From: a virus | Lineage: Duplodnaviria > Heunggongvirae > Uroviricota > Caudoviricetes | IMG/VR virus record: IMGVR_UViG_2778261576_000005 | Location: 1 to 37,529 of that record | Strand: one strand, 5' to 3' | DNA length: 37,529 bases | In this document: positions 25,947 to 37,529 of the stretch, in pieces | Layout: every line of letters begins with the position of its first letter | How positions within the stretch are numbered: the first letter of the stretch is position 1 | Program-made: the position numbers and the translations under genes | Notes under the pieces: model-generated | Told to the model about the DNA's origin: nothing | The model's database searches: none | The model's input: only the letters and a program-made list of their open reading frames with translations

Positions 25947-26336
25947 TCAGGCGGCTGCACCCGCCGTTTTCTCGTACTTACTGATAGTGATCTCGACCTT
26001 CCCTTCCGGGATAACCGGTCCCCACTCCACCAGCATTCTTTTCACCTGACTGTCGTTCTCCCACACACCCGCGTGGGTCAGGGCGTCAAACAGCGCCTTG
26101 TTATAGTTGTCCAGATCGCGGATCCGGTTATCCGGAGGAAACAACACGATCTCCACTGAAGCAGGTGCCGACGTTGGTTTTGGCAGACGACGTAACTGCT
26201 CAACTATTGCTGCACACGCCGCGCTCTGGAATTTTCGCCCCGCCGCGCTTATCAGGCTCTTACCTGCAAACGCCCCTTTGTTGGGGTGTCGCCAGTACGT
26301 GTTCACGCTGGGCGGAAAAGGCAGTATTAGCTTCAT
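25947..26336 (-). CDS. rusA: RusA Holliday junction resolvase
   Basis: 129 aa; PPSVNTYWRH, RDLDN and FDALT motifs. Confidence 0.85.
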   Translation of the reverse strand: MKLILPFPPSVNTYWRHPNKGAFAGKSLISAAGRKFQSAACAAIVEQLRRLPKPTSAPASVEIVLFPPDNRIRDLDNYNKALFDALTHAGVWENDSQVKRMLVEWGPVIPEGKVEITISKYEKTAGAAA

Positions 26337-26659
26337 ACTTTCAGGCCCCTCTCATGTAACCAGTGGGTTGCACGCAGCCTTGCGTTTTCCTCACCGGCAA
26401 GCAGTGCGCGGATAATCCCGACCGCCTCGCTGTCGTCGTCCTTCACCGCGGTATGAAGCGTTATCCCCCGGGCCACGCCACGCTTTATCGTGATGACGCC
26501 TTTTTTCTCCAGTGCGCGAAGATGCTCCACTGCTGCATTCACTGAACGATATCCCAGCATGGTTGCCACCTCCTGATTGGTTGGCGGGAAGCCACGTTCT
26601 TTCTGGTAAGAAATCAGCATATCCAGCACCTGCTGCTGGCATTGAGTTAACGTCGTCAT
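26333..26659 (-). CDS. LexA N-terminal DNA-binding domain protein lacking the S24 peptidase domain
   Basis: 108 aa; QQQVLDML...GFPPTNQEVATMLGYRSVNAAVEHLRALEKKGVI closely parallels the LexA winged HTH; no Ser-Lys dyad region. Confidence 0.65.
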   Translation of the reverse strand: MTTLTQCQQQVLDMLISYQKERGFPPTNQEVATMLGYRSVNAAVEHLRALEKKGVITIKRGVARGITLHTAVKDDDSEAVGIIRALLAGEENARLRATHWLHERGLKV

Positions 26660-27309
26660 GCCGCCATCTCCCTGACCAGTTTTTCTGCCTGCTGGCGAAC
26701 CTGCGCCAGAAAGGCCTCACCACATGCCTCAAGTTCATCGCGCCCGATGTAGCTGATTGCCGGTCCCTTCCAGGTCTTGTCGAAAACAGCAATAGCACCA
26801 GCGAAGAAAGCGCCTGTCGGCACCTGCTTCTCATCCTTCGGGATAAACCAGGCAGGCAGTTCAAAACCAATACGCCCGCGAATAAAAGCAATATGATCTG
26901 CATCTTCCGGCCACCACACTTCGCTGGTGGCAGCTTTGATCAGGAAAACATAGCGCCCGCCTTTATCACGCATGGCACTGGCATGCTTCATGATGTAACG
27001 CATGCCGGTGATGTATTGCCCCTCATGCTGACTGGCGCGGCTGTATGGGGGATTACCAAAGGCAGCACCTTTAAGCTCCGCAAGGCGTTCTGACCAGTCA
27101 TGCGCCAGCGCGTTGTCTTCCGCCGTGTAATACGCAGCACATTTGGCGTTATCACCGTCAGTGAACAGATCCAGAACAAACGGGCCAAACAGGGTGTTAA
27201 TTCCCCAGAAAATGTTGTCCGGCGTGCGCCACTGATCGCCCACTTCCTTCAGTTCATGGGCTGGTTTGTTCCGCAGTTCCGCCAGCGCCTGGCAATATTT
27301 ATTACTCAT
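26656..27309 (-). CDS. Phage N6-adenine DNA methyltransferase (Dam-like)
   Basis: NPPY catalytic motif; TAATG stop-start overlap with upstream gene. Confidence 0.8.
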   Translation of the reverse strand: MSNKYCQALAELRNKPAHELKEVGDQWRTPDNIFWGINTLFGPFVLDLFTDGDNAKCAAYYTAEDNALAHDWSERLAELKGAAFGNPPYSRASQHEGQYITGMRYIMKHASAMRDKGGRYVFLIKAATSEVWWPEDADHIAFIRGRIGFELPAWFIPKDEKQVPTGAFFAGAIAVFDKTWKGPAISYIGRDELEACGEAFLAQVRQQAEKLVREMAA

Positions 27310-27803
27310 TAAGCCCCCACGTAATTCCCTGAGAGATACCACTCTTCACCTGATGCAGCCCGCTTACTGCTTTTCCGTAAACACCGTTCACGACGCGCCA
27401 GAAAATTGTTTCGTTCTGGCTGGGAGTGGCTTTCACGGAATGCCGCCATCCACACCGTTGCAGCACGACGGTATAAGCCCCTCGACTCCAGTTCTTCAGC
27501 CTGGCGGGTCAGGCACAAAATCACCCGGGGGTCGTTAGTGCCGACATAGAACTTGCGCACAGGTCTGGTTTCACGAACTGGTTGTGGTTCCGGCTCCTGC
27601 GCTCTCTCAGTCAGGCGCGAGAAATGTCTGCGTGTATCTCCTTCACAACGGTGAGCCACACGCCCACTCTGACGTAACTTGCTTGCTGACTGCAGAACGC
27701 GCTGCCGTGAGTAACCTGCAAAAGCATCCGCAATGTCTCCGGAAGTACACCCCGGATGGGCTTCAATGAATTTCTGAACTTCATTCAAAAGACTCATGAT
27801 CAC
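27309..27803 (-). CDS. PerC/ANR-like regulator domain protein
   Basis: 164 aa; C-terminal GLYRRAATVWMAAF...RRERC resembles PerC family. Confidence 0.45.
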   Translation of the reverse strand: MIMSLLNEVQKFIEAHPGCTSGDIADAFAGYSRQRVLQSASKLRQSGRVAHRCEGDTRRHFSRLTERAQEPEPQPVRETRPVRKFYVGTNDPRVILCLTRQAEELESRGLYRRAATVWMAAFRESHSQPERNNFLARRERCLRKSSKRAASGEEWYLSGNYVGA

Positions 27804-28618
27804 CCCCTGAATCCTGCCGGGATCTGGCTGTAGTCCACGTTGTCGTAACTGGCTTTGAAGTACGGGTCCTCGCGTCTGGCTGCAGATACCGCAGGAACTT
27901 CCCAGAATTCTTCGAAATGACGATCCGGACCAAAGAACGTGACAGCCTGTTTCACAAATTGTGTGCCGCTGTTACCCATCGCAGATACCCATCCCGCGTA
28001 GCGTTTCACACCTTCCAGCATGGTTTCGGGGTTTACTCCCTCATTCAAACGGGCTTTCCAGGCTTTGAAGGCTGCAGATTTTGAATTGCCACCAGCACGT
28101 TTGGGATATACCAGCCATGCCTGCTCAAACTCCGGAGAGTATTCCGGTCGGTTTGAACGAACTCGCACGGACTCATCAACTGATGCACCAACAGCTATTG
28201 GTTCATTGACTGGTTCTTTGACTGGTTCAAAAGAGTGACTGGTTCTGGGTGAATCTCCTGCACTACCCCCTGGTGCAACTCCTGCACTACCTGGTGAATT
28301 TGCTGCACCAGATAGTGAATTATTTGCACTACCCCCTAGTGAATCTCCTGCACCATCCAGATGAAGGAGATAGATATTACTTGAGTTACCTTTTTCACCT
28401 TTCCGGGTGACTTTTTTTACCAGCCCGGACTCACAAAGGGCCGCAATATGATTCATCACAGAACGTTTGCTAATCTCGCACTGGTCAGCAATATGCTGAT
28501 AGCTGGGCCAGCACTCACCCTGATCGCTGGCATTATCAGCCAGCTTGATCAGAACCAGTTTTCGCAATGGATTACCCACTCGAATTTTCATCGCTTTAAC
28601 CATCAGCTCCATACTCAT
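27800..28618 (-). CDS. Replication initiation protein (O-like; winged-helix N-terminus, internal iterons)
   Basis: ATG at 28618 with GGAGG SD; N-terminal HTH; low-complexity Gly/Ser/Ala linker encoded by the iterons. Confidence 0.65.
   Translation of the reverse strand: MSMELMVKAMKIRVGNPLRKLVLIKLADNASDQGECWPSYQHIADQCEISKRSVMNHIAALCESGLVKKVTRKGEKGNSSNIYLLHLDGAGDSLGGSANNSLSGAANSPGSAGVAPGGSAGDSPRTSHSFEPVKEPVNEPIAVGASVDESVRVRSNRPEYSPEFEQAWLVYPKRAGGNSKSAAFKAWKARLNEGVNPETMLEGVKRYAGWVSAMGNSGTQFVKQAVTFFGPDRHFEEFWEVPAVSAARREDPYFKASYDNVDYSQIPAGFRG
28245..28357. repeat. Five direct iteron-like repeats (core GGTGAATnTnCTGCAC), candidate replication origin
   Basis: Copies start near 28245, 28268, 28291, 28312, 28335; preceded by three GACTGGTTC repeats; AT-rich stretch at 28358-28410. 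Confidence 0.6.
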
Positions 28619-28839
28619 GCTGCACCTCCGAGATGCTTCATGTTTTTTCCGGAGCAAAAGGCTATAAGCGGCATACTGACGCGGTAATTACGGCCCAGCG
28701 GTTCACAAACCACCTTCTGACATTCACGGTCAACCAGGCTAACACGTAGAACATGCCCTGCAGGCGTGGTGTACCACTGACCGGGGCGAGGACAACGGAA
28801 AGTCTGATTGGTAAATCGTTTGAAAATATTCCGGATCAT
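28615..28839 (-). CDS. Small Cys-containing basic protein, translationally coupled between Rha and replication gene
   Basis: 74 aa; ATGA overlaps at both ends; four Cys residues. Confidence 0.45.
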   Translation of the reverse strand: MIRNIFKRFTNQTFRCPRPGQWYTTPAGHVLRVSLVDRECQKVVCEPLGRNYRVSMPLIAFCSGKNMKHLGGAA

Positions 28840-29987
28840 TTGCGCCCCCTTACCTCTGAAGAGTTCAGCGACGAATGAATAAGACGGGCAAGAAATGCCG
28901 CATCGTTAATTCGGTCATACAGACTTACAGCCAGCGGTGATTCAGCTTTTTCCAGCATGGGATAAAGCTGCTGCAACCAGACCTGATGAATTGATGAAAT
29001 GTAGGAACAGAGAACGCTGGCGTTATGTGCAACGTCGCTCGGTACAGCGGGCTTTGAAAGCTGTTTCTCCATCTGGTTAAAGGCATTGATATATGCCTCT
29101 TTGAACTGGGCAGCACGTTTACCCGTGAAACCCATAGCAAGAAACGCAAAACCGTCGCGTGTGATTTGGTAGCAAGGAAGTTTGCGACCTGTGCAATCAG
29201 TGTAATCACTCACCGAAAAATTGCGGGCAGTGAATGATGCTGAGCATTCAAGCGTGCGGATCTTTTTCAGTACATCGTCATGACGTTTGGAGAAGAAGTT
29301 GGCAACAGCCAGGGATGAAGTAACAGCCTGACCATCAACGATGGCAATTTCAGGTTGAGTGAGGGTTGGGATCGTAGCCATGATGGCAGCCTCTTTGGTG
29401 ATTTTTAATAACTCACCACCAAGGCTTTCCACGACCTTATTGGTGGTGAGACATACAGGGGTGGAAATACCGGTCACCAAAGAACCCGGCCCAACCGAAG
29501 TTGGCCCTGCACGCCCCACCATAATTTGGGCGTAATGCTGCTCATGACACAAAAAAACCGCAAGAGCGCGGTTGTGCGCTTTGGTGAATTCCGGGTTTCC
29601 ACGCCCGGCACCCGTTTTATAAGGTGCCTGAACAGTGTAACGTCCCGGAATGGCAGAATCAATGTGCTGGTGGTCCTTCACACTCAACAAAATCACGCCT
29701 GAATTTCCACAAAGGACTAAAGCACTCATGCGGGTAGTCTTTGCGAAGATAGATAACGCGCTGTGTTTCTGGCTCCCAACGAATAACATGAACATAAAGT
29801 CCTCTTCCGTCACGAAACCAGCGGTTAAGTTCCTGCACAACTCGCCCCCCACAGTCAGGTAAAGTTCTCTGTGGTTACTTACAGCCAGGTGATTTGGTAA
29901 TCTGCATTCATGCCGTAACAACAGGTGTGCAGCGACACTGACCACCAGCTGTTGCGACAAACGGTTATTTGCCGTTAAACTGTTCAT
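28836..29987 (-). CDS. Rha-family regulatory domain protein (Rha domain from internal ATG 29381; 202-codon open N-terminal extension)
   Basis: Rha motifs in the C-terminal half; ORF start at 29987 makes an ATGA overlap with the upstream gene stop. Confidence 0.55.
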   Translation of the reverse strand: MNSLTANNRLSQQLVVSVAAHLLLRHECRLPNHLAVSNHRELYLTVGGELCRNLTAGFVTEEDFMFMLFVGSQKHSALSIFAKTTRMSALVLCGNSGVILLSVKDHQHIDSAIPGRYTVQAPYKTGAGRGNPEFTKAHNRALAVFLCHEQHYAQIMVGRAGPTSVGPGSLVTGISTPVCLTTNKVVESLGGELLKITKEAAIMATIPTLTQPEIAIVDGQAVTSSLAVANFFSKRHDDVLKKIRTLECSASFTARNFSVSDYTDCTGRKLPCYQITRDGFAFLAMGFTGKRAAQFKEAYINAFNQMEKQLSKPAVPSDVAHNASVLCSYISSIHQVWLQQLYPMLEKAESPLAVSLYDRINDAAFLARLIHSSLNSSEVRGRK

Positions 29988-30890: not shown

Positions 30891-31542
30891 GATGAACATG
30901 AGTGATCGTATTCGCCAAAGGCGAAAAGAACTGAACCTGACACAACAAGCACTGGCTGATTTGACTGGTGTGAACCGTGTCACGGTTACTGGATGGGAAA
31001 AGGACGACTACCAACCAAATGGAGCCAACCTTCAAGCCCTAGCCAACGCACTTAAATGCGATCCTCTGTGGCTTGTTAGCGGAAAAGGCTCGCCTGAACC
31101 AAAGATAAATCTAAAACCTGAAATATTCGCAGTTAAAAAAGTCCCCCTCATCTCGTGGGTTCAGGCGGGTTCATGGACAATGACGGAGCCTGGTGTCAGG
31201 AAAGAAGATGCTGAAGAGTGGGTTTATACTACCGCCCTTGTATCAGAAATGGCATTTGCACTACGGGTCCGTGGTGATTCAATGACCAATCCCCTCGGCT
31301 CACCATCGATACCAGAAGGTTCTATCGTTATCGTAGAGCCAGATATTATTGATACAGAGTGTATTAACGGAAAAATCGTTGTTGCCCATATCAATGGTGG
31401 GCAAGAAGCGACACTCAAAAAATTTGTTGAGGACTGGCCGAACAGGTATCTCGTCCCACTAAATCCTAACTATAAAACTATTGAATGCGGTGAGAACTGC
31501 AGAATAGTTGGTCTTGTCAAACAAGTAATAATGGATTTTTGA
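30889..31542 (+). CDS. CI-type prophage repressor (HTH plus S24 LexA-like autopeptidase)
   Basis: N-terminal XRE-type HTH; C-terminal GDSM Ser nucleophile and conserved Lys. Confidence 0.85.
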   Translation: MMNMSDRIRQRRKELNLTQQALADLTGVNRVTVTGWEKDDYQPNGANLQALANALKCDPLWLVSGKGSPEPKINLKPEIFAVKKVPLISWVQAGSWTMTEPGVRKEDAEEWVYTTALVSEMAFALRVRGDSMTNPLGSPSIPEGSIVIVEPDIIDTECINGKIVVAHINGGQEATLKKFVEDWPNRYLVPLNPNYKTIECGENCRIVGLVKQVIMDF

Positions 31543-31566
31543 CACATCTTCCTCACTATCGCAAAA

Positions 31567-31588
31567 CCGGGGTATCCCCGGTTTTTTT
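31567..31588 (+). terminator. Intrinsic terminator after the CI gene
   Basis: CCGGGG-tat-CCCCGG followed by seven T. Confidence 0.7.
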
Positions 31589-31604
31589 ATGAGCCTATCT
31601 TTTT

Positions 31605-31658
31605 ATGTAGGATAACCAACATAAACTCTTGACACTCACATGTTGGATATCCTACATT
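31605..31658 (+). promoter_or_regulatory. OL/PL: two operator repeats bracketing TTGACA-N18-TACATT
   Basis: ATGTAGGATAACCAACAT at 31605-31622 and its near reverse complement at 31640-31657; -35 at 31629-31634. Confidence 0.6.
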
Positions 31659-31663
31659 TGTTT

Positions 31664-31752
31664 TTAGAGTTGTGGTGAATGCGCAGGCTGATGCGCGAAA
31701 GACATTGCAGCTATTGCGGAAAAGAGCTGTTCGGCGGGGCCATTAAACGCCC
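31664..31752 (+). repeat. 89-bp direct repeat, copy 1
   Basis: Identical to 32292-32380 except two mismatches; contains a GCGCA-N6-TGCGC hairpin and a GCTCTTTT-complement motif. Confidence 0.85.
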
Positions 31753-31856
31753 ATATCTGGAGGTTAAAGAACAAAATGAAAGTCCAGATTTTAAACAATA
31801 ACTGTGAAGTCGTTTGGGCGTAAAACATGACCGCGCGTAGACCAAGGGAGGAAAAA

Positions 31857-32033
31857 GTGGGAATAGTTAGAAATCAAGCAGATATATTGAAAATCAGCTC
31901 TGAATTGCTTGGAGTTTTGAAAAGTGAGCTCACCGCACATGGCATCGAGCCCACTGACGAAAATTTAAGTTGGGTTTTGTCGATTATTCAACAATCACTC
32001 AAGCCCAGCCTCAGCAAACTTTTTATCGAGTAG
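31857..32033 (+). CDS. Small hypothetical protein (58 aa from GTG 31857; alternative ATG 31827 gives an Arg-rich N-terminus)
   Basis: GGGAGG SD 5 nt before GTG; within the AT-rich cassette; 3' end overlaps the convergent ORF. Confidence 0.4.
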   Translation: MGIVRNQADILKISSELLGVLKSELTAHGIEPTDENLSWVLSIIQQSLKPSLSKLFIE

Positions 32034-32186
32034 TGCTTCGAACTTATCGTAAAGCTTGCTTATGTCGTCTATCGGGTTTTCTGACGTACTGTAATTTTTA
32101 TCTGATGTCATGGCAGCAGTCTGATATGCAGTGTGAGTCTTAACCGATAGTTGGAATAAATAAAGAATTTTTTCTTCTTTGGTCAT
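31995..32186 (-). CDS. Small hypothetical protein (63 aa)
   Basis: AAGGAAA SD 5 nt before ATG at 32186; MTKEEKILYLFQL...; within the AT-rich cassette. Confidence 0.45.
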   Translation of the reverse strand: MTKEEKILYLFQLSVKTHTAYQTAAMTSDKNYSTSENPIDDISKLYDKFEALLDKKFAEAGLE

Positions 32187-32291
32187 AACTATTTCCTTCT
32201 TGGCTATATGAAAACACCAAGATACCACCGAGCCTGAAGTGGTGAAAAGACAGGCACATAACAGCTAAGTATTTTCAACCAGAGAGAATCC

Positions 32292-32380
32292 TTAGCGTTG
32301 TGGTGAATGCGCAGGCTGATGCGCGAAAGACATTGCAGCTATTGCGGAAAAGAGCTGTTCGGCGGGGCAATTAAACGCCC
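32292..32380 (+). repeat. 89-bp direct repeat, copy 2
   Basis: See copy 1; the copies flank a roughly 540-bp AT-rich segment. Confidence 0.85.
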
Positions 32381-32627
32381 GTGAGAGTCTGAAATAACCG
32401 CAAGCCGGAGATCAGCACCGGTCACCACAACAGCCACTGCTTTGGCGGTACCAGTTTGTACACTTGCTTCCGGCTGGTACCGCTCTTTTTACAAAACAGA
32501 GAAGAGCATCACCGGACGACGGGCTCATAACCCAATCCATCCGGGCGTCTGCCACCGCAGGTGTTCTTCTCTGTTTTGTGGAGAAACCAACCGACCTTGC
32601 AGGGTCGATATGATGAGGAGCAGCAAA

Positions 32628-32990
32628 ATGGCTAGCGAACGCAGTACTGATGTGCAGGCATTTATCGGGGAGCTGGACGGCGGCGTATTTGAAACCAAAA
32701 TCGGCGCAGTTCTCAGTGAAGTCGCTTCCGGTGTGATGAACACGAAAACCAAAGGTAAGGTCTCGCTCAACCTGGAAATCGAACCGTTTGATGAGAACCG
32801 TGTGAAAATAAAACACAAACTCTCATATGTTCGCCCGACTAACCGCGGGAAAATTTCCGAAGAAGACACCACCGAAACGCCGATGTATGTCAATCGCGGT
32901 GGTCGCCTGACTATTCTGCAGGAAGACCAGGGACAATTACTGACTCTTGCCGGTGAGCCTGACGGAAAACTCCGCGCAGCAGGTCATTAA
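32628..32990 (+). CDS. YfdP-like early protein (120 aa)
   Basis: AGGAG SD 7 nt before ATG 32628; size and position match the KplE1 yfdP-yfdQ-yfdR order as recalled. Confidence 0.5.
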   Translation: MASERSTDVQAFIGELDGGVFETKIGAVLSEVASGVMNTKTKGKVSLNLEIEPFDENRVKIKHKLSYVRPTNRGKISEEDTTETPMYVNRGGRLTILQEDQGQLLTLAGEPDGKLRAAGH

Positions 32991-33055
32991 TATCGTTCTT
33001 AATTAACTGATTATTTATCTCATCATTGAATATCTTTATATAGTGAGGACTTATT

Positions 33056-33880
33056 ATGTCTCAGAACTTAGACGCAACCGCAATTAATCAAATTCATGCC
33101 CTTATTTCTGCTCAGGGTGTTAATGAAATTATCAGTAAGATTGGTGCCGATGCTGTGGCATTGCCTGAGAATTTCCGCATTCATGATCTGGAAAAATTTA
33201 ATTTAAATCGCTTCCGTTTCCGTGGTGCACTTTCCACTGCCAGCATCGATGATTTTACCCGTTATTCTAAAGATCTTGCAGATGAAGGCACCCGCTGCTT
33301 TATCGACGCCGATAATATGCGTGCCGTCAGTGTACTTAACCTGGGTACTATCGATGAACCAGGTCACGCAGATAACACCGCCACTCTCAAACTGAAAAAG
33401 ACAGCACCGTTCTCTGCCCTGTTGTCTGTTAACGGCGAGCGTAACTCCCAGAAGTCACTGGCAGAATGGATTGAAGACTGGGCCGACTACCTTGTGGGCT
33501 TTGATGCTAATGGTGACGCCATTCAGGCAACCAAAGCGGCTGCGGCGATCCGTAAAATCACAATTGAAGCGAACCAGACAGCTGATTTTGAAGATAATGA
33601 CTTCAGCGGCAAACGCTCCCTGATGGAGTCAGTCGAAGCGAAGACCAAAGACATTATGCCAGTGGCATTTGAATTTAAATGCGTTCCGTTTGAAGGCCTG
33701 AAAGAACGTCCGTTTAAATTACGCCTCAGCATTATCACTGGCGATCGTCCTGTACTGGTTCTGCGCATTATTCAGCTGGAAGCGGTGCAGGAAGAAATGG
33801 CTAACGAATTTCGTGATCTGCTTGTTGAGAAATTCAAAGACAGCAAAGTCGAAACCTTTATTGGTACTTTCACCGCCTGA
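33056..33880 (+). CDS. YfdQ-like protein (DUF2303-type, 274 aa)
   Basis: Size and position; acidic protein. Confidence 0.55.
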
Positions 33881-34007
33881 TTTCATTACTGCAAATGCCC
33901 CTGCGGGGGCATTTATGGAAACGTAATTAACTCAATAATCACCGGATGGTGAGAGCTTCCTTTTACCAGAATTCAGCGCGGTGCAGCGCATATACGTGGA
34001 GAACAAA

Positions 34008-34544
34008 ATGTCATTTATTAAAACTTTTTCCGGGAAGCATTTTTATTATGACAAGATAAATAAAGACGACATCGTGATTAACGATATCGCAGTTTCCCTC
34101 TCAAATATCTGTCGCTTTGCAGGGCATCTTTCACACTTCTACAGCGTCGCCCAACATGCGGTGCTTTGCAGCCAGCTGGTACCGCAGGAGTTTGCTTTCG
34201 AAGCGTTAATGCATGATGCAACAGAAGCATATTGCCAGGACATCCCCGCGCCACTGAAACGACCTCTTCCTGACTATAAACGGATGGAAGAAAAAATAGA
34301 CGCCGTAATCCGTAAGAAATACGGGTTACCCCCGGTTATGAGTACGCCCGTGAAATATGCCGATCTAATCATGCTGGCAACCGAACGCCGTGATCTCGGG
34401 CTTGATGATGGCTCTTTCTGGCCTGTACTGGAAGGCATCCCGGCAACAGAGATGTTCAACGTGATTCCACTGGCACCGGGCCATGCCTACGGGATGTTTA
34501 TGGAACGCTTCAACGAGTTATCGGAATTACGCAAATGTGCATAA
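34008..34544 (+). CDS. HD-domain phosphohydrolase, YfdR-like 5'-deoxynucleotidase
   Basis: GGAG SD 6 nt before ATG 34008 (178 aa); H...HD...D metal-binding motif (LMHDATEAY). Confidence 0.7.
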   Translation: MSFIKTFSGKHFYYDKINKDDIVINDIAVSLSNICRFAGHLSHFYSVAQHAVLCSQLVPQEFAFEALMHDATEAYCQDIPAPLKRPLPDYKRMEEKIDAVIRKKYGLPPVMSTPVKYADLIMLATERRDLGLDDGSFWPVLEGIPATEMFNVIPLAPGHAYGMFMERFNELSELRKCA

Positions 34545-35413
34545 CTCATGTAGTTAGTTTTTCTGGCGGGAGAACATCTGCATATCTTGTTCACCTGATG
34601 GAAGAACAAAGAAAGGCTGGCAATAACGTCTGCTACATCTTTATGGATACCGGTTGCGAACATCCGCTGACATACCGCTTTATTCGGGAGGTTGTGAAGT
34701 TCTGGGGCATACCGCTAACTGTGTTGCAGGTCGATATAAATCCAGAGCTTGGGCAGCCAAATGGTTATACGGAATGGGAACCAAAGGATATTCAGACACG
34801 AATGCCGGTGCTTAAACCGTTTATGGACATGGTAAAAAAATATGGCACGCCATACATCGGCGGCGAGTTCTGCACTGACAGATTAAAACTCACCCCCTTC
34901 ACAAAATACTGCGATGACCATTTCGGACGAGGGAATTACATCACATGGCTGGGTATTCGTGCAGACGAACCTCGTAGGCTGAAACCGAAATCAGGCGTCC
35001 GGTATCTTGCCGAGCTATCTGATTTTGATAAGTCGGATGTTATCCGGTGGTGGCATAAACAACCTTTTGATTTGCAAATCCCGGAGCACCTCGGGAACTG
35101 TGTTTTCTGCATCAAAAAGTCCACGCAAAAGCTGGGGCTTGCATGTAAAGACGAACCTGGTCTGATGCGAGTTTTTAATGAGCTGGTTACAGGTAAACAC
35201 GTCCGGGATGGTCACCGAAAGACAAATAAAGACGTTATGTACCGTGGTCATCTGAGCCTTGACGGGATTGCCAGAATGTATGCCGACAGCGACTACAGAA
35301 ATTTGTATCAGGCGATGGTGCAAGCCAGGCGATTCGATACCGGCTCGTGTTCAGAGTCATGTGAAATCTGGGGTGATCAATTGGAATTGAAATTCGAAGA
35401 GGTGGTGGCATGA
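34535..35413 (+). CDS. PAPS reductase-like PP-loop ATP pyrophosphatase family protein
   Basis: SFSGGRTSA PP-loop motif near the N-terminus; 292 aa. Confidence 0.75.
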   Translation: MCITHVVSFSGGRTSAYLVHLMEEQRKAGNNVCYIFMDTGCEHPLTYRFIREVVKFWGIPLTVLQVDINPELGQPNGYTEWEPKDIQTRMPVLKPFMDMVKKYGTPYIGGEFCTDRLKLTPFTKYCDDHFGRGNYITWLGIRADEPRRLKPKSGVRYLAELSDFDKSDVIRWWHKQPFDLQIPEHLGNCVFCIKKSTQKLGLACKDEPGLMRVFNELVTGKHVRDGHRKTNKDVMYRGHLSLDGIARMYADSDYRNLYQAMVQARRFDTGSCSESCEIWGDQLELKFEEVVA

Positions 35414-35613
35414 CAATCGTAAAAACCCATACCGGCATTGTGATCACCAAAGACGGCCCGCAGGTAAAAAAACTTCACCAGACAGAGCGGATGTGGGTCG
35501 TCGGCAAAAACGAGTTTTACCACAAAGAAACCGGACGCCGCCACTTTGCAGAAAATACGCGCCGCCGACTACTGATCGACACCATCAAGCCTATCGAGGT
35601 GAAGCATGTTTAA
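35410..35613 (+). CDS. Small hypothetical protein (67 aa)
   Basis: ATGA overlap with upstream stop; GAGGTGG SD. Confidence 0.45.
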   Translation: MTIVKTHTGIVITKDGPQVKKLHQTERMWVVGKNEFYHKETGRRHFAENTRRRLLIDTIKPIEVKHV

Positions 35614-35845
35614 ACAGAACGAAAAATCTATCGCTCAAATTGCTGAGTATATCCCGCGTGCGTGCCGGGGTATGCAGTTGCAGGAAGCCAAAGCGCGCCT
35701 GGAGAAAAAAATTGCGCTCTATATCGATGACGGCTGTGATGCTGCCGTTCTTAACGCGGCGTTCGCGCCAGCTCTTAACAGTCATACGCGGGAGTCTTTT
35801 TTTTCGCGCATCGCAGCGCAGATCCGTAAAGGAGGCAACCAGTGA
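35606..35845 (+). CDS. Small hypothetical protein (79 aa)
   Basis: Coupled to neighbours by overlapping stop/start. Confidence 0.45.
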   Translation: MFKQNEKSIAQIAEYIPRACRGMQLQEAKARLEKKIALYIDDGCDAAVLNAAFAPALNSHTRESFFSRIAAQIRKGGNQ

Positions 35846-36153
35846 GCAATTATCTGTACTGGTCTGGCTTAGTGGCTAACATTGCGCTCATGTTGTTCGT
35901 GGCTCTTTGCATCTGGGTTTGGTTTATCTGGCCTTTTGTAGAGGCTATGAGCATAACTCGGTGCTTTATTTGCGCATCAAAGACTTCTGGATGCAAACCA
36001 ACTGTAAGAGCAATTATCAGAACTTTAAAATACTGGTATCTGGATTTGCTTTTCGGCAGGGGCTGGACGCGAATTAGTAACCGCCAGTTTGAATGGGAAG
36101 GCGTCGGTAACTGGCGAATTCACAGCAGCAAAGAAACGCAGGAGGTGAAGTAA
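35842..36153 (+). CDS. Small membrane protein (103 aa, one N-terminal TM)
   Basis: GTG start with AAGGAGG SD; hydrophobic segment LVANIALMLFVALCIWVWFIW. Confidence 0.5.
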   Translation: MSNYLYWSGLVANIALMLFVALCIWVWFIWPFVEAMSITRCFICASKTSGCKPTVRAIIRTLKYWYLDLLFGRGWTRISNRQFEWEGVGNWRIHSSKETQEVK

Positions 36154-36725
36154 TGAACAACTTAATGATCGACCTTGAGACGATGGGGAAAAATAAGGAT
36201 GCACCAATCGTTTCCATTGGCGCGGTGTTCTTCACCCCAGAAACCGGAGACATCGGACAAGAATTCTATACGGTTGTCAGCCTGGAAAGTGCTATGGAGC
36301 AAGGGGCCACACCTGACGGCGATACCATCCTGTGGTGGTTGAAACAGAGCCCTGAAGCACGAGCTGCAATCTGTATTGATGATACTTTGTCGATCAGCGA
36401 TGCACTCTCTGAACTGAGCCATTTCATTAATCAGCATGCAGACAATACAAAATATTTAAAAGTCTGGGGTAACGGGGCCACCTTCGACAACGTAATTTTA
36501 CATGGAGCTTATGAGCGAGCAGGACAAATCTGCCCGTGGGCATACTGGAATGACCACGATGTACGCACGATCGTTACGCTTGGGCGTTCCATCGGATTCG
36601 ACCCCAAAATGGACATGCCCTTCGATGGCGAACGGCACAACGCCCTGGCCGATGCCCGTCATCAGGCAAAATATGTTTCCGCTATCTGGCAGAAATTAAT
36701 TCCTGCCACCAGCACAGAATTATGA
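36153..36725 (+). CDS. 3'-5' exonuclease, DEDD family
   Basis: MIDLETMG acidic motif I, later conserved His/Asp (ERHNALADARHQ); 190 aa. Confidence 0.7.
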   Translation: MNNLMIDLETMGKNKDAPIVSIGAVFFTPETGDIGQEFYTVVSLESAMEQGATPDGDTILWWLKQSPEARAAICIDDTLSISDALSELSHFINQHADNTKYLKVWGNGATFDNVILHGAYERAGQICPWAYWNDHDVRTIVTLGRSIGFDPKMDMPFDGERHNALADARHQAKYVSAIWQKLIPATSTEL

Positions 36726-36761
36726 TTTTCCCGGGTGCAGCCGGTTTTGATGGAGAAAATT

Positions 36762-37034
36762 ATGAACACCTTGTTTTTACTGATGGCTGAATTCAATACC
36801 CCTAACATTGAACTCTCAGCAGTTAGCCAAAAGTACTTTGGCATGAGTCCAGCCACGGCAGAAGCAAAAGCAAACGCTTGTAAGTTGCCCGTTCCAACAT
36901 ATCGCATCGGCACATCACAAAAAGCAAAACGTTGCATCAATATTCAGGATCTTGCGGAATACATAGACAAAAGGCGAGAAGAAGGGCGTGCTGAGTGGGA
37001 AAGGGTCAGAACCCATAAACAAAGGCTCATTTAA
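36762..37034 (+). CDS. Excisionase-like DNA-binding protein (PrtN family)
   Basis: GGAG SD 6 nt before ATG 36762; about 90 aa; last gene of early-left operon before the expected int. Confidence 0.5.
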   Translation: MNTLFLLMAEFNTPNIELSAVSQKYFGMSPATAEAKANACKLPVPTYRIGTSQKAKRCINIQDLAEYIDKRREEGRAEWERVRTHKQRLI

Positions 37035-37041
37035 ATAGAAT

Positions 37042-37075
37042 ATGAATAAACCCATCCAAAGATGGGTTTATTCAT
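37042..37075. terminator. Perfect 15-bp stem hairpin between convergent xis-like gene and the 153-aa ORF
   Basis: atgaataaacccatc-caaa-gatgggtttattcat; no clean T-run on either side. Confidence 0.5.
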
Positions 37076-37529
37076 AATGTTGAAGAGCAGCGAGTATCAG
37101 TTTTTTATGCCGTTTAACCATAGTTTTAGATATCTCAACTGCACATCGAACTTGTCTCATACAATGATCTGTAATGCGACCTTTTAGCACGTCACCATAT
37201 TGGATGGCTATTTTCTCTTTAATAATTTCAAGATCGAAAGCAGCATGAGCCTCAATGCAATTAACAAATGAGTCCCATTTAAGAAAATCATGGTCCTCTC
37301 TATTAATTTCGACCTGACAAGCCATAAGATCATTGTTTCTCTTAATAAATTCATTTATATCTGAATTTATTAGAAGAACTAAAAGAGGTTCACAGCAAAC
37401 AACCACCATATATTTTACTTTAGGTGGGGTCGTAAAATCACAATGAAGATACAATACATCACCGGGTGATATACCTCTTTCACGACTAAAATTAGCCTTA
37501 AAATCAGGAGGGAAACAATCACCCAGCAT
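37068..37529 (-). CDS. Hypothetical protein encoded on AT-rich DNA (153 aa), unknown function
   Basis: ORF runs to the window edge, which ends exactly on its ATG; convergent to the early-left operon. Confidence 0.5.
   Translation of the reverse strand: MLGDCFPPDFKANFSRERGISPGDVLYLHCDFTTPPKVKYMVVVCCEPLLVLLINSDINEFIKRNNDLMACQVEINREDHDFLKWDSFVNCIEAHAAFDLEIIKEKIAIQYGDVLKGRITDHCMRQVRCAVEISKTMVKRHKKLILAALQHYE

Follow-up and report, generated by a model that had tools for sequence, protein, structure and literature searches.

The subject of this analysis is the 37,529-nucleotide stretch of IMG/VR record IMGVR_UViG_2778261576_000005 (the window), which belongs to an SfV-like temperate phage or prophage, and more precisely a group of repeats in its replication initiator gene. 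Positions 28199-28353, in the linker-coding part of this gene, are very probably the vegetative replication origin of the phage (probability about 0.8). The segment comprises five dyad-symmetric iterons and, beside them, a conserved element made of GAACCAGTCA units. A preliminary description of the window had proposed an origin embedded in an initiator gene; the proposal is now backed by signs of selection at the DNA level, by covariation between the repeats and the predicted recognition helix of the initiator, and by changes in repeat number that involve whole units.

The initiator gene starts with an ATG at 28618, which forms an ATGA overlap with the stop codon of a 74-residue open reading frame (ORF) upstream. 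The protein is 98-99% identical to the 'replication protein' of SfV orf39, and near-identical genes are present in mEp460, Ayreon, cdtI, Stx2c phages and Stx2a_WGPS2 or Stx2a_1447. Pfam HTH_36 (PF13730) matches residues 17-67 (E = 1.8e-11, 44.1 bits for a cutoff of 25) and PHROG 270, 'replication initiation protein', matches residues 3-271 (E = 9.9e-88). By profile threshold, the gene product classifies as an HTH_36 phage replication initiator; its N-terminus also gives a weak DnaD_N match. In RefSeq the gene is just labelled 'helix-turn-helix domain-containing protein', and the GenBank record of SfV, which annotates operators, promoters and terminators, has nothing inside orf39.

The protein was modelled with AlphaFold2 from a shallow, mostly C-terminal alignment (mean predicted local distance difference test, pLDDT, of 60). 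The modelled N-terminal domain has helices at residues 17-31 and 38-63 and strands at 67-73 and 79-85; the predicted recognition helix, S50-KRSVMNHI-A59, is followed by a beta-hairpin wing. Most of residues 88-155 have a pLDDT below 50. This linker is predicted to be disordered, and can therefore tolerate a sequence that is dictated by the DNA. A sequence search of solved structures returned no meaningful match, and a Foldseek search of the PDB gave no match with an E-value under 0.1, but a weak winged-helix similarity to ORC2 and to the N-domain of DnaD.

The repeats all lie within the minus-strand gene (28618-27800) and encode residues 88-131 (GAGDSLGGSANNSLSGAANSPGSAGVAPGGSAGDSPRTSHSFEPVKEPVNEP). 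Five 15-mers resembling GTGAAnnTnnTGCAC are found on the plus strand, with starts at 28249, 28273, 28294, 28315 and 28339, so that the start-to-start distances are 24, 21, 21 and 24 bp. On the coding strand each is an imperfect 15-bp palindrome, GTG(C/A)A-N5-T(G/T)CAC (GTGmA-N5-TkCAC). All five are in one reading frame and encode a Gly/Ser/Ala/Pro-rich linker (residues 88-113). The preliminary description had placed five direct repeats of roughly 22 bp at 28200-28420, within the initiator coding sequence. The five copies are there, at 28249-28353, but the unit has to be redefined as a 15-bp dyad, with about two helical turns from one to the next. The three GACTGGTTC repeats reported beside the iterons are also present as exact copies, with a degenerate fourth. 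An iteron origin is expected to have at least three initiator-sized sites about two helical turns apart, and the window has five, 21-24 bp apart.

The array stands out from the rest of the window. The pattern GTGAANNTNNTGCAC, with at most one mismatch, has 6 matches in the 37.5 kb vs 1.2 expected, a count that is reached by 0 of 100 shuffles, and five of the six are the iterons. The simpler motif GTG-N9-CAC has 13 occurrences in the window, and 5 of these fall inside 105 bp (Poisson P = 5e-10). According to Tandem Repeats Finder, the iterons and the GACTGGTTC array are the sole tandem repeats of the whole window. Scans for DnaA boxes, IHF sites and GATC found none inside the origin (28199-28353), and a promoter scan of 27700-28900 gave no sigma-70-like site.

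The only criterion for gathering homologues was protein similarity at the N-terminus, and the DNA repeats had no part in the selection. The sample consists of 15 phage records (30-99% identity), 80 IMG/VR contigs with identical N-domains, and 80 genomes, one per species, from Enterobacterales, Pseudomonas, Shewanella, Vibrio, Aliivibrio, Aeromonas, Marinomonas, Xenorhabdus, Halomonadaceae and others; 160 of the approximately 830 loci found were kept for the family analysis. Every member has the same layout, which consists of the winged helix, a repeat-encoded linker and the peptide PRTSHSFEPVxEP. In 89 non-identical gammaproteobacterial genes, GTG-N9-CAC occurs 349 times in the linkers (30.2/kb) vs 6 times elsewhere (0.1/kb), an enrichment of about 300-fold, with mostly 4 or 5 sites per gene. 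Adjacent sites are 21-24 bp apart in 269 of 287 pairs, and 90 pairs have a spacing of 22 or 23 bp, which is no multiple of three. In 54 of 80 genes the sites do not all share one reading frame, and 25 genes have both orientations in one array. Iteron DNA is thus translated as GAGDS, VVQEIH or VNLLH, between genes or even within one gene. Because spacing, frames and orientations vary while the DNA site is kept, a purely protein-level repeat is ruled out, and selection is seen to act on a dyad-symmetric DNA site repeated at about two helical turns, not on a peptide. The earlier remark that the repeats also encode a low-complexity linker, DNA and protein constraints being superimposed, holds in this sense.

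The type of half-site follows the predicted recognition helix of the initiator, which is encoded just upstream of the repeats. Half-sites of the GTG(C/A)A type are paired with a helix S(K/R)RSV(M/I)xH, where residue x is Asn56 in the window protein. Sites of the form GTGAC-N5-GTCAC are paired with an arginine at x (..MR[HAK]) in about five otherwise divergent lineages (the Erwinia/Izhakiella group, Aliivibrio, Vibrio D67, Vibrio D79 and mEp010), and the Erwinia/Izhakiella proteins are nearly identical to class A except for this arginine. A third pairing links GTGCC-N7-GGCAC to SKSAV(R/K) and a wing insertion (S135, RothC, L157, L175), while a Pseudomonas group with the helix DRSTVRKH has yet another repeat. 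Together with the 300-fold enrichment of sites beside the DNA-binding domain of the gene itself, this covariation is indirect evidence of binding by the cognate initiator.

The number of repeats changes by whole units. With identical N-domains, there are 5 iterons in 71 of 80 contigs and 4, 6 or 7 in the rest, and phage cdtI (L002, 1501-2385) has reached 8 through a 66-bp, three-unit duplication. The 12-mers number 2-5 among near-identical phages: PhiR63_1 (L015, 2501-3331) has four GAACCAGTCA units, and the count varies among contigs L016-L095. This is the behaviour that is expected of initiator binding sites. As a separate observation, the alleles of Pseudomonas bharatica (L114) and Erwinia tracheiphila (L150) have a frameshift within the iteron array and a stop just past the block (…HPEPVTLLNQ); they resemble prophage copies in decay, in which the DNA of the origin persists.

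The conserved element reads CC AGAACCAGTCAC TCTTTT GAACCAGTCAA A GAACCAGTCAA T GAACCA on the coding strand. It has three exact GAACCAGTCA units (28236-28245, 28219-28228 and 28207-28216) and one degenerate unit. The corresponding exact GACTGGTTC copies are at 28208-28216, 28220-28228 and 28237-28245, and the degenerate fourth is TGGTTC at 28199. Translation of the GAACCAGTC units gives EPVKEPVNEP. If up to 7 edits are allowed, 89 of 95 genes contain the block AGAACCAGTCACTCTTTTGAACCAGTCAA, of which 81 have it in frame 0 and 8 in frame 2, and the block starts exactly 2 bp past the last dyad in 71 of 76 genes.

The conservation of this block acts at the DNA level, independently of the reading frame. 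In 76 non-identical genes, element codons were compared with winged-helix codons of the same genes. Where a pair of genes has the same residue, the same codon is used in a fraction of 0.91 for the 14 codons of the element, vs 0.42 for 55 winged-helix codons. Pairwise identities at codon positions 1, 2 and 3 are 0.80, 0.85 and 0.42 in the winged helix and 0.85, 0.85 and 0.81 in the element. The arginine of the element is AGA in 73 of the 76 genes, and its two serines are AGT and TCT, each in 74 of 76, Pseudomonas included. Six intact genes read the beginning of the block, its first half, in another frame, as PEPVTL instead of PRTSHSF, and the DNA is kept.

Over 212 non-redundant contexts the consensus of the block is CaCCCAGAAcCAGTCACTCTTTTGAACCAGTCAanGAACC, with 2-5 GAACCAGTCA units per origin (three in 127 contexts). 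When IMG/VR was searched in reverse, with nothing but the DNA pattern, 120 loci were obtained, and all 111 that could be assessed have the winged-helix motif at most 480 nucleotides upstream. The element was therefore found only in origins behind an initiator of the HTH_36 winged-helix family. Rfam recognizes no family in the element, only a chance sub-threshold microRNA match, and the block contains no promoter-like, DnaA, IHF or GATC site. Searching the literature with the element sequence gave unrelated primers and no paper with a relevant context. The invariant block appears to be undescribed, and related prophages of many bacterial genera carry near-identical copies of it. Folding of its single strands gives no secondary structure (z about 0), which makes a hairpin-type primosome assembly site unlikely. 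A perfect 10-nucleotide inverted copy of ACTGGTTCTG (28238-28247) is present at 28550-28559, where it encodes KLVL in the winged-helix coding region; it is probably due to chance, because the KLVL codons vary in relatives, and it was not retained as functional.

Which flank of the iterons is unwound can be approached by comparing the two low-stability regions. Both the AT-rich region of lambda and oriC hold tandem 11- to 13-mers. The preliminary description had pointed to an AT-rich tract as in lambda, and such a tract exists on the winged-helix side of the array, with a GC content of 35-38% vs a mean of 51% for the window. Located at 28360-28420, it is the locally least stable DNA (95th-98th percentile of the least stable 40-mers), although much less AT-rich than the lambda tract. 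A lambda-like unwinding role is not the one we favour for it: its GC content in relatives tracks that of the host or gene (0.33, 0.42 and 0.51), so that this tract, which follows host GC and amino acid composition, is the weaker unwinding candidate. Across the family, no segment of the gene is less stable than the block, whose GC content is 12-13 points lower than the gene mean (8-9 points for the wing-coding tract) and is held at 35-42% while that of the gene spans 0.41 to 0.59. The block is also on the side of the iterons that matches the AT-rich region of lambda, downstream in the direction of translation. This constant low GC content and this location make the GACTGGTTC block the better candidate, and the chances that it is an unwinding or helicase-entry element may be put at about even. 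Inside the AT-rich tract, a terminator-like hairpin with a T-run (TCACCTTTCCGGGTGA CTTTTTTT) is seen at 28395-28419 on the plus strand, antisense to the initiator; about one such site is expected by chance in the scan of this region.

The C-terminal domain behaves as a module that is swapped separately from the N-terminal part. At least five unrelated C-terminal classes are found joined to the N-terminal module (winged helix, iterons and block), with the junction right after the block, and tblastn matches to this N-terminal module end at residues 136-142. The C-domain of the window type has a confidently modelled helical core at about residues 160-230 (block-mean pLDDT 69-89), and gives no Pfam match on its own. 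This type of C-domain has IstB/DnaC-like and DnaB genes downstream of it in Aeromonas phage AsXd-1 (68% identical overall) and Stx2_12E129. RothC has a DnaT-like C-domain followed by a lambda-P homologue, and with another class of C-domain a DnaB gene comes next. The fact that the type of C-domain varies with the downstream loader gene suggests that this domain recruits the loader and the helicase.

No helicase, loader or primase domain was found in the other ORFs of at least 150 residues between 20 and 37.5 kb. With a single origin-binding-protein gene and no helicase or loader in its replication module, the window phage has the 'O-only' module (LLS group) that PMC12315714 reports in 34 of 314 lambdoid phages of Enterobacterales. 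In such phages we infer that the C-domain would recruit the DnaC and DnaB of the host. The initiator gene of Stx2_12E129_yecE (L014, 1997-2905) combines the C-domain of the window protein with an unrelated N-domain; just before the C-domain junction (nucleotides 453-500 of the gene) it has four tandem 12-mers resembling ACAGAGAATACC, with GGGAAACC-type repeats upstream. A layout of iterons followed by tandem 12-mers may thus recur in other initiator families.

The following mechanism can be proposed. Dimers of the N-terminal winged helix would bind the five dyads and form a nucleoprotein complex similar to the lambda 'O-some', which would destabilize the adjacent low-GC block of 12-mers, whose single strands form no secondary structure. 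After melting, the nearly invariant first 48 residues of the initiator may hold these strands. The C-domain would then bring a loader and helicase pair of the DnaC/DnaB type, which would be that of the host since the phage encodes none. The origin would also be crossed by early-operon transcription coming from the cro side, as is the case at lambda ori.

A more specific version of this scheme is possible, and we hold it only tentatively. By analogy with the DnaA-trios, or with Rep on the 13-mers of plasmid unwinding elements, the block could be a sequence-specific unwinding and helicase-entry element of many gammaproteobacterial prophages, bound as single strands by the N-terminal 48 residues and part of a portable 'origin cassette'. 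If this were true, the iterons and the recognition helix of the cassette would diversify freely around the block, the cassette could be joined to any loader-recruiting C-domain, and 'O-only' phages could use the DnaC and DnaB of the host directly.

Several points weigh against the assignment of the origin and of the unwinding element. The searched literature does not report, for any member of this family, that the initiator binds, that DNA is unwound or that replication is autonomous, and according to PMC12315714 none of the 'O-only' lambdoid phages has been studied and their replication is 'not yet understood'. PLSDB contains no small plasmid with the module; its 36 matches are mostly phage-sized circles (about 25-55 kb) and some much larger records. 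The helicase-loading step is purely inferred, because the window has no DnaA box, no IHF site and no helicase, loader or primase gene. The element is no classical AT-rich tract: in the window it has about 42% GC and is at about the 87th percentile of instability, the tract across the iterons (28350-28400) is less stable, and neither candidate is strongly AT-rich. Last, the homologues are mutually related, so that the counts given above are not independent events, and the codon control within the same genes is only partial.

The same observations can be read in other ways. The repeats could be sites at which the initiator controls the early operon, by autoregulation or copy control, with the true origin elsewhere. 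In principle, sites for a winged-helix protein within a gene might affect transcription, as a roadblock or an operator, and the covariation with the recognition helix speaks for binding specificity and not for replication as such. The cumulative GC skew has its minimum at 30-33 kb and not at 28.3 kb, but this minimum coincides with the cI/cro switch of transcription direction and is therefore uninformative. The 37.5-kb window has no second tandem repeat array, the layout is that of the annotated lambda ori, with a low-stability tract beside the sites, and the family is annotated as, and clusters with, replication initiators; in relatives its genes are followed by DnaC/DnaB, P or primase-helicase genes. 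We consider this explanation improbable. Even less credible, to the point of being nearly negligible, is that the repeats are a low-complexity protein linker generated by slippage, with no function as DNA. The encoded peptide is indeed disordered and compositionally simple, and the copy number varies in steps that resemble slippage. Slippage, however, does not account for a 15-mer that is kept in two frames and both orientations to give unrelated peptides, for spacings held at 21-24 bp including non-multiples of three, or for a 300-fold enrichment of sites in the linker with a half-site that co-varies with the recognition helix.

The GAACCAGTCA block raises a question of its own. It lies where the similarity between relatives ends (residues 136-142), before at least five unrelated C-terminal classes, and is not strongly AT-rich in the window; the main alternatives are thus that it is a stretch of homology at the boundary between the N- and C-terminal modules, kept through recombination between phages, or a binding site for a conserved host factor. 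Recombination alone would not keep 40 bp near-invariant from Pseudomonas to Vibrio when adjacent third codon positions are at 42% identity. With its 2-5 tandem units the block is built as an array for binding or unwinding would be; only 2 bp separate it from the last iteron in 71 of 76 genes, it was found only with the HTH_36 initiator family, and it has no DnaA or IHF consensus. The boundary or host-factor explanation therefore seems rather unlikely, though less so than autoregulation. It is also not exclusive of an unwinding element, since a conserved functional block may be a favoured crossover point as well.

The closest parallel in layout is lambda ori. In both cases the origin is inside the initiator gene, between the DNA-binding N-domain and the partner-binding C-domain, the two parts of the protein are modular, and a low-stability tract is directly downstream in the direction of translation; the order found in the window (N-domain, iterons, low-stability tract, C-domain) is that of the annotated lambda ori. 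Lambda ori has four iterons and an AT-rich region, and 4-5 dyad sites 20-24 bp apart are common to lambda and the window. The gene had been called 'O-like', and the analogy stands for the layout but does not extend to detectable homology. The window protein belongs to HTH_36 and has no PF04492 match, whereas lambda O hits PF04492 at 5.7e-36, and hhalign of the N-domain alignment with lambda O gives a probability of 6%. The dyads of the window are 15 bp long (GTGmA-N5-TkCAC) vs 18 bp in lambda (ATCCCTCAAAACGAGGGA), its flanking tract is a sequence-conserved array of 12-mers with about 42% GC instead of a visibly AT-rich run, and the gene directly downstream is not P but a PerC-like gene, followed by Dam.

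Gene 18 of P22 and of phage L also has origin repeats inside the initiator gene (PMC8022706). As in the window, these are lambdoid early-right initiators with family-specific repeats in the coding region, whose specificity differs between phages. Unlike the window phage, P22 and phage L encode a DnaB-type helicase (gene 12) beside the initiator, and no invariant flanking element is described for them in PMC8022706.

The origins of iteron plasmids, such as RK2 oriV (TrfA), F (RepE) and pPS10 (RepA), have their iterons outside the rep gene, usually with DnaA boxes. They share with the window a winged-helix initiator, repeats spaced about 22 bp, or about two helical turns, apart, and adjacent tandem 12- to 13-mers, but the origin of the window is coding sequence and has no DnaA box. 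The 13-mers of plasmid unwinding elements are bound by Rep as single strands (PMC4081077).

The window phage shares its gene content with 'O-only' lambdoid phages (PMC12315714) and with 'Eru6'-type Stx phages (PMC8951638): a single HTH_36 initiator after cI, cro, a cII-like gene and Rha, with no loader or helicase, and an early-left operon with yfbR-like, DUF2303 and PAPS-reductase genes. The 'Eru6' type is defined there by Rha and HTH_36, with the statement of 'no knowledge' about replication (PMC8951638), and its representative Stx2a_WGPS2 has a 97% identical initiator. In the parts of these papers that were accessible, the classification is one of gene content; term searches of the accessible text found no iterons in PMC8951638 and no repeats in PMC8044961.

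Table 1. Coordinates of the features discussed in the text (positions in the window).
Feature	Positions	Strand	Remarks
Replication initiator gene	27800..28618	-	272 residues; Pfam HTH_36, PHROG 270
N-terminal winged helix-turn-helix domain (residues 1-87)	28358..28618	-	Pfam and AlphaFold2 model
Moderately AT-rich tract	28360..28420	no strand	35-38% GC; encodes wing of winged helix (KKVTRKGEKGNSSNIYLLHL)
Iteron 1 (gene order)	28339..28353	no strand	coding strand GTGCAGGAGATTCAC
Iteron 2	28315..28329	no strand	coding strand GTGCAAATAATTCAC
Iteron 3	28294..28308	no strand	coding strand GTGCAGCAAATTCAC
Iteron 4	28273..28287	no strand	coding strand GTGCAGGAGTTGCAC
Iteron 5	28249..28263	no strand	coding strand GTGCAGGAGATTCAC; end 2 bp from conserved element
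Conserved element	28199..28248	no strand	candidate unwinding or helicase-entry element; about 50 bp
C-terminal helical domain (residues 156-272)	27803..28153	-	putative helicase or loader recruitment domain
Early-left ORFs (within 31500-37529)	33056-33880, 33981-34544, 34535-35413, 36153-36725	+	domain matches

The structural genes of the window are 97-98% identical to those of SfII, SfI, SfIV and SKA5. On the minus strand the gene order is cro, cII-like, Rha, the 74-residue ORF, the initiator, PerC-like, Dam, LexA-like and RusA, and cI is divergent, on the plus strand. The genes downstream of the initiator (26333-27803, minus strand) encode a PerC/ANR-like regulator of 164 residues, a phage Dam methylase and a LexA-like winged-helix protein of 108 residues. 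The absence of GATC from 28199-28353 makes a Dam/SeqA-type control of the origin seem unlikely. Upstream, the longest ORF at 28836-29987 (minus strand) has 383 residues, and its Rha domain match starts after an internal methionine at 29381. At this position SfV has an annotated gene of 837 nucleotides and cdtI an 'antirepressor' gene of 1149 nucleotides, so that the start, or a fusion, is ambiguous. The early-left operon encodes a DUF2303 (yfdQ-like) protein, a YfbR-like 5'-deoxynucleotidase, a protein with a PAPS-reductase domain and an Rv2179c-like 3'-5' exonuclease, and no recognizable recombination module was found in 31500-37529. This gene content fits the 'LLS/ST64B functional type', which is linked to host-recombination-dependent growth in PMC12315714.

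The origin is widespread. Among 5,426 complete E. coli genomes, 925 carry the 301-bp origin region, in up to 4 places per genome, and the origin sequence is also found in Stx2c, Stx2a, cdtI and serotype-converting Shigella phages. Its reading as an origin of a known kind, with a lambda-type layout, is well supported by the comparisons made here, and it has an invariant block that was not found described. Prophages that reside in the same genome would have a common initiator-iteron specificity, and the question arises whether they cross-activate each other or are incompatible.

Work on Stx phages has connected their replication with toxin output and virulence (PMC8044961), and a defined origin would provide concrete reagents for work on Stx phage replication. 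It also offers a specificity code that can be tested, in which Asn56 or arginine would match GTG[CA]A or GTGAC, respectively, together with a conserved element. Because frame and orientation differ between copies of one 15-mer that is translated, the region is an unusually clean natural case of a coding sequence shaped by constraint at the level of the DNA.

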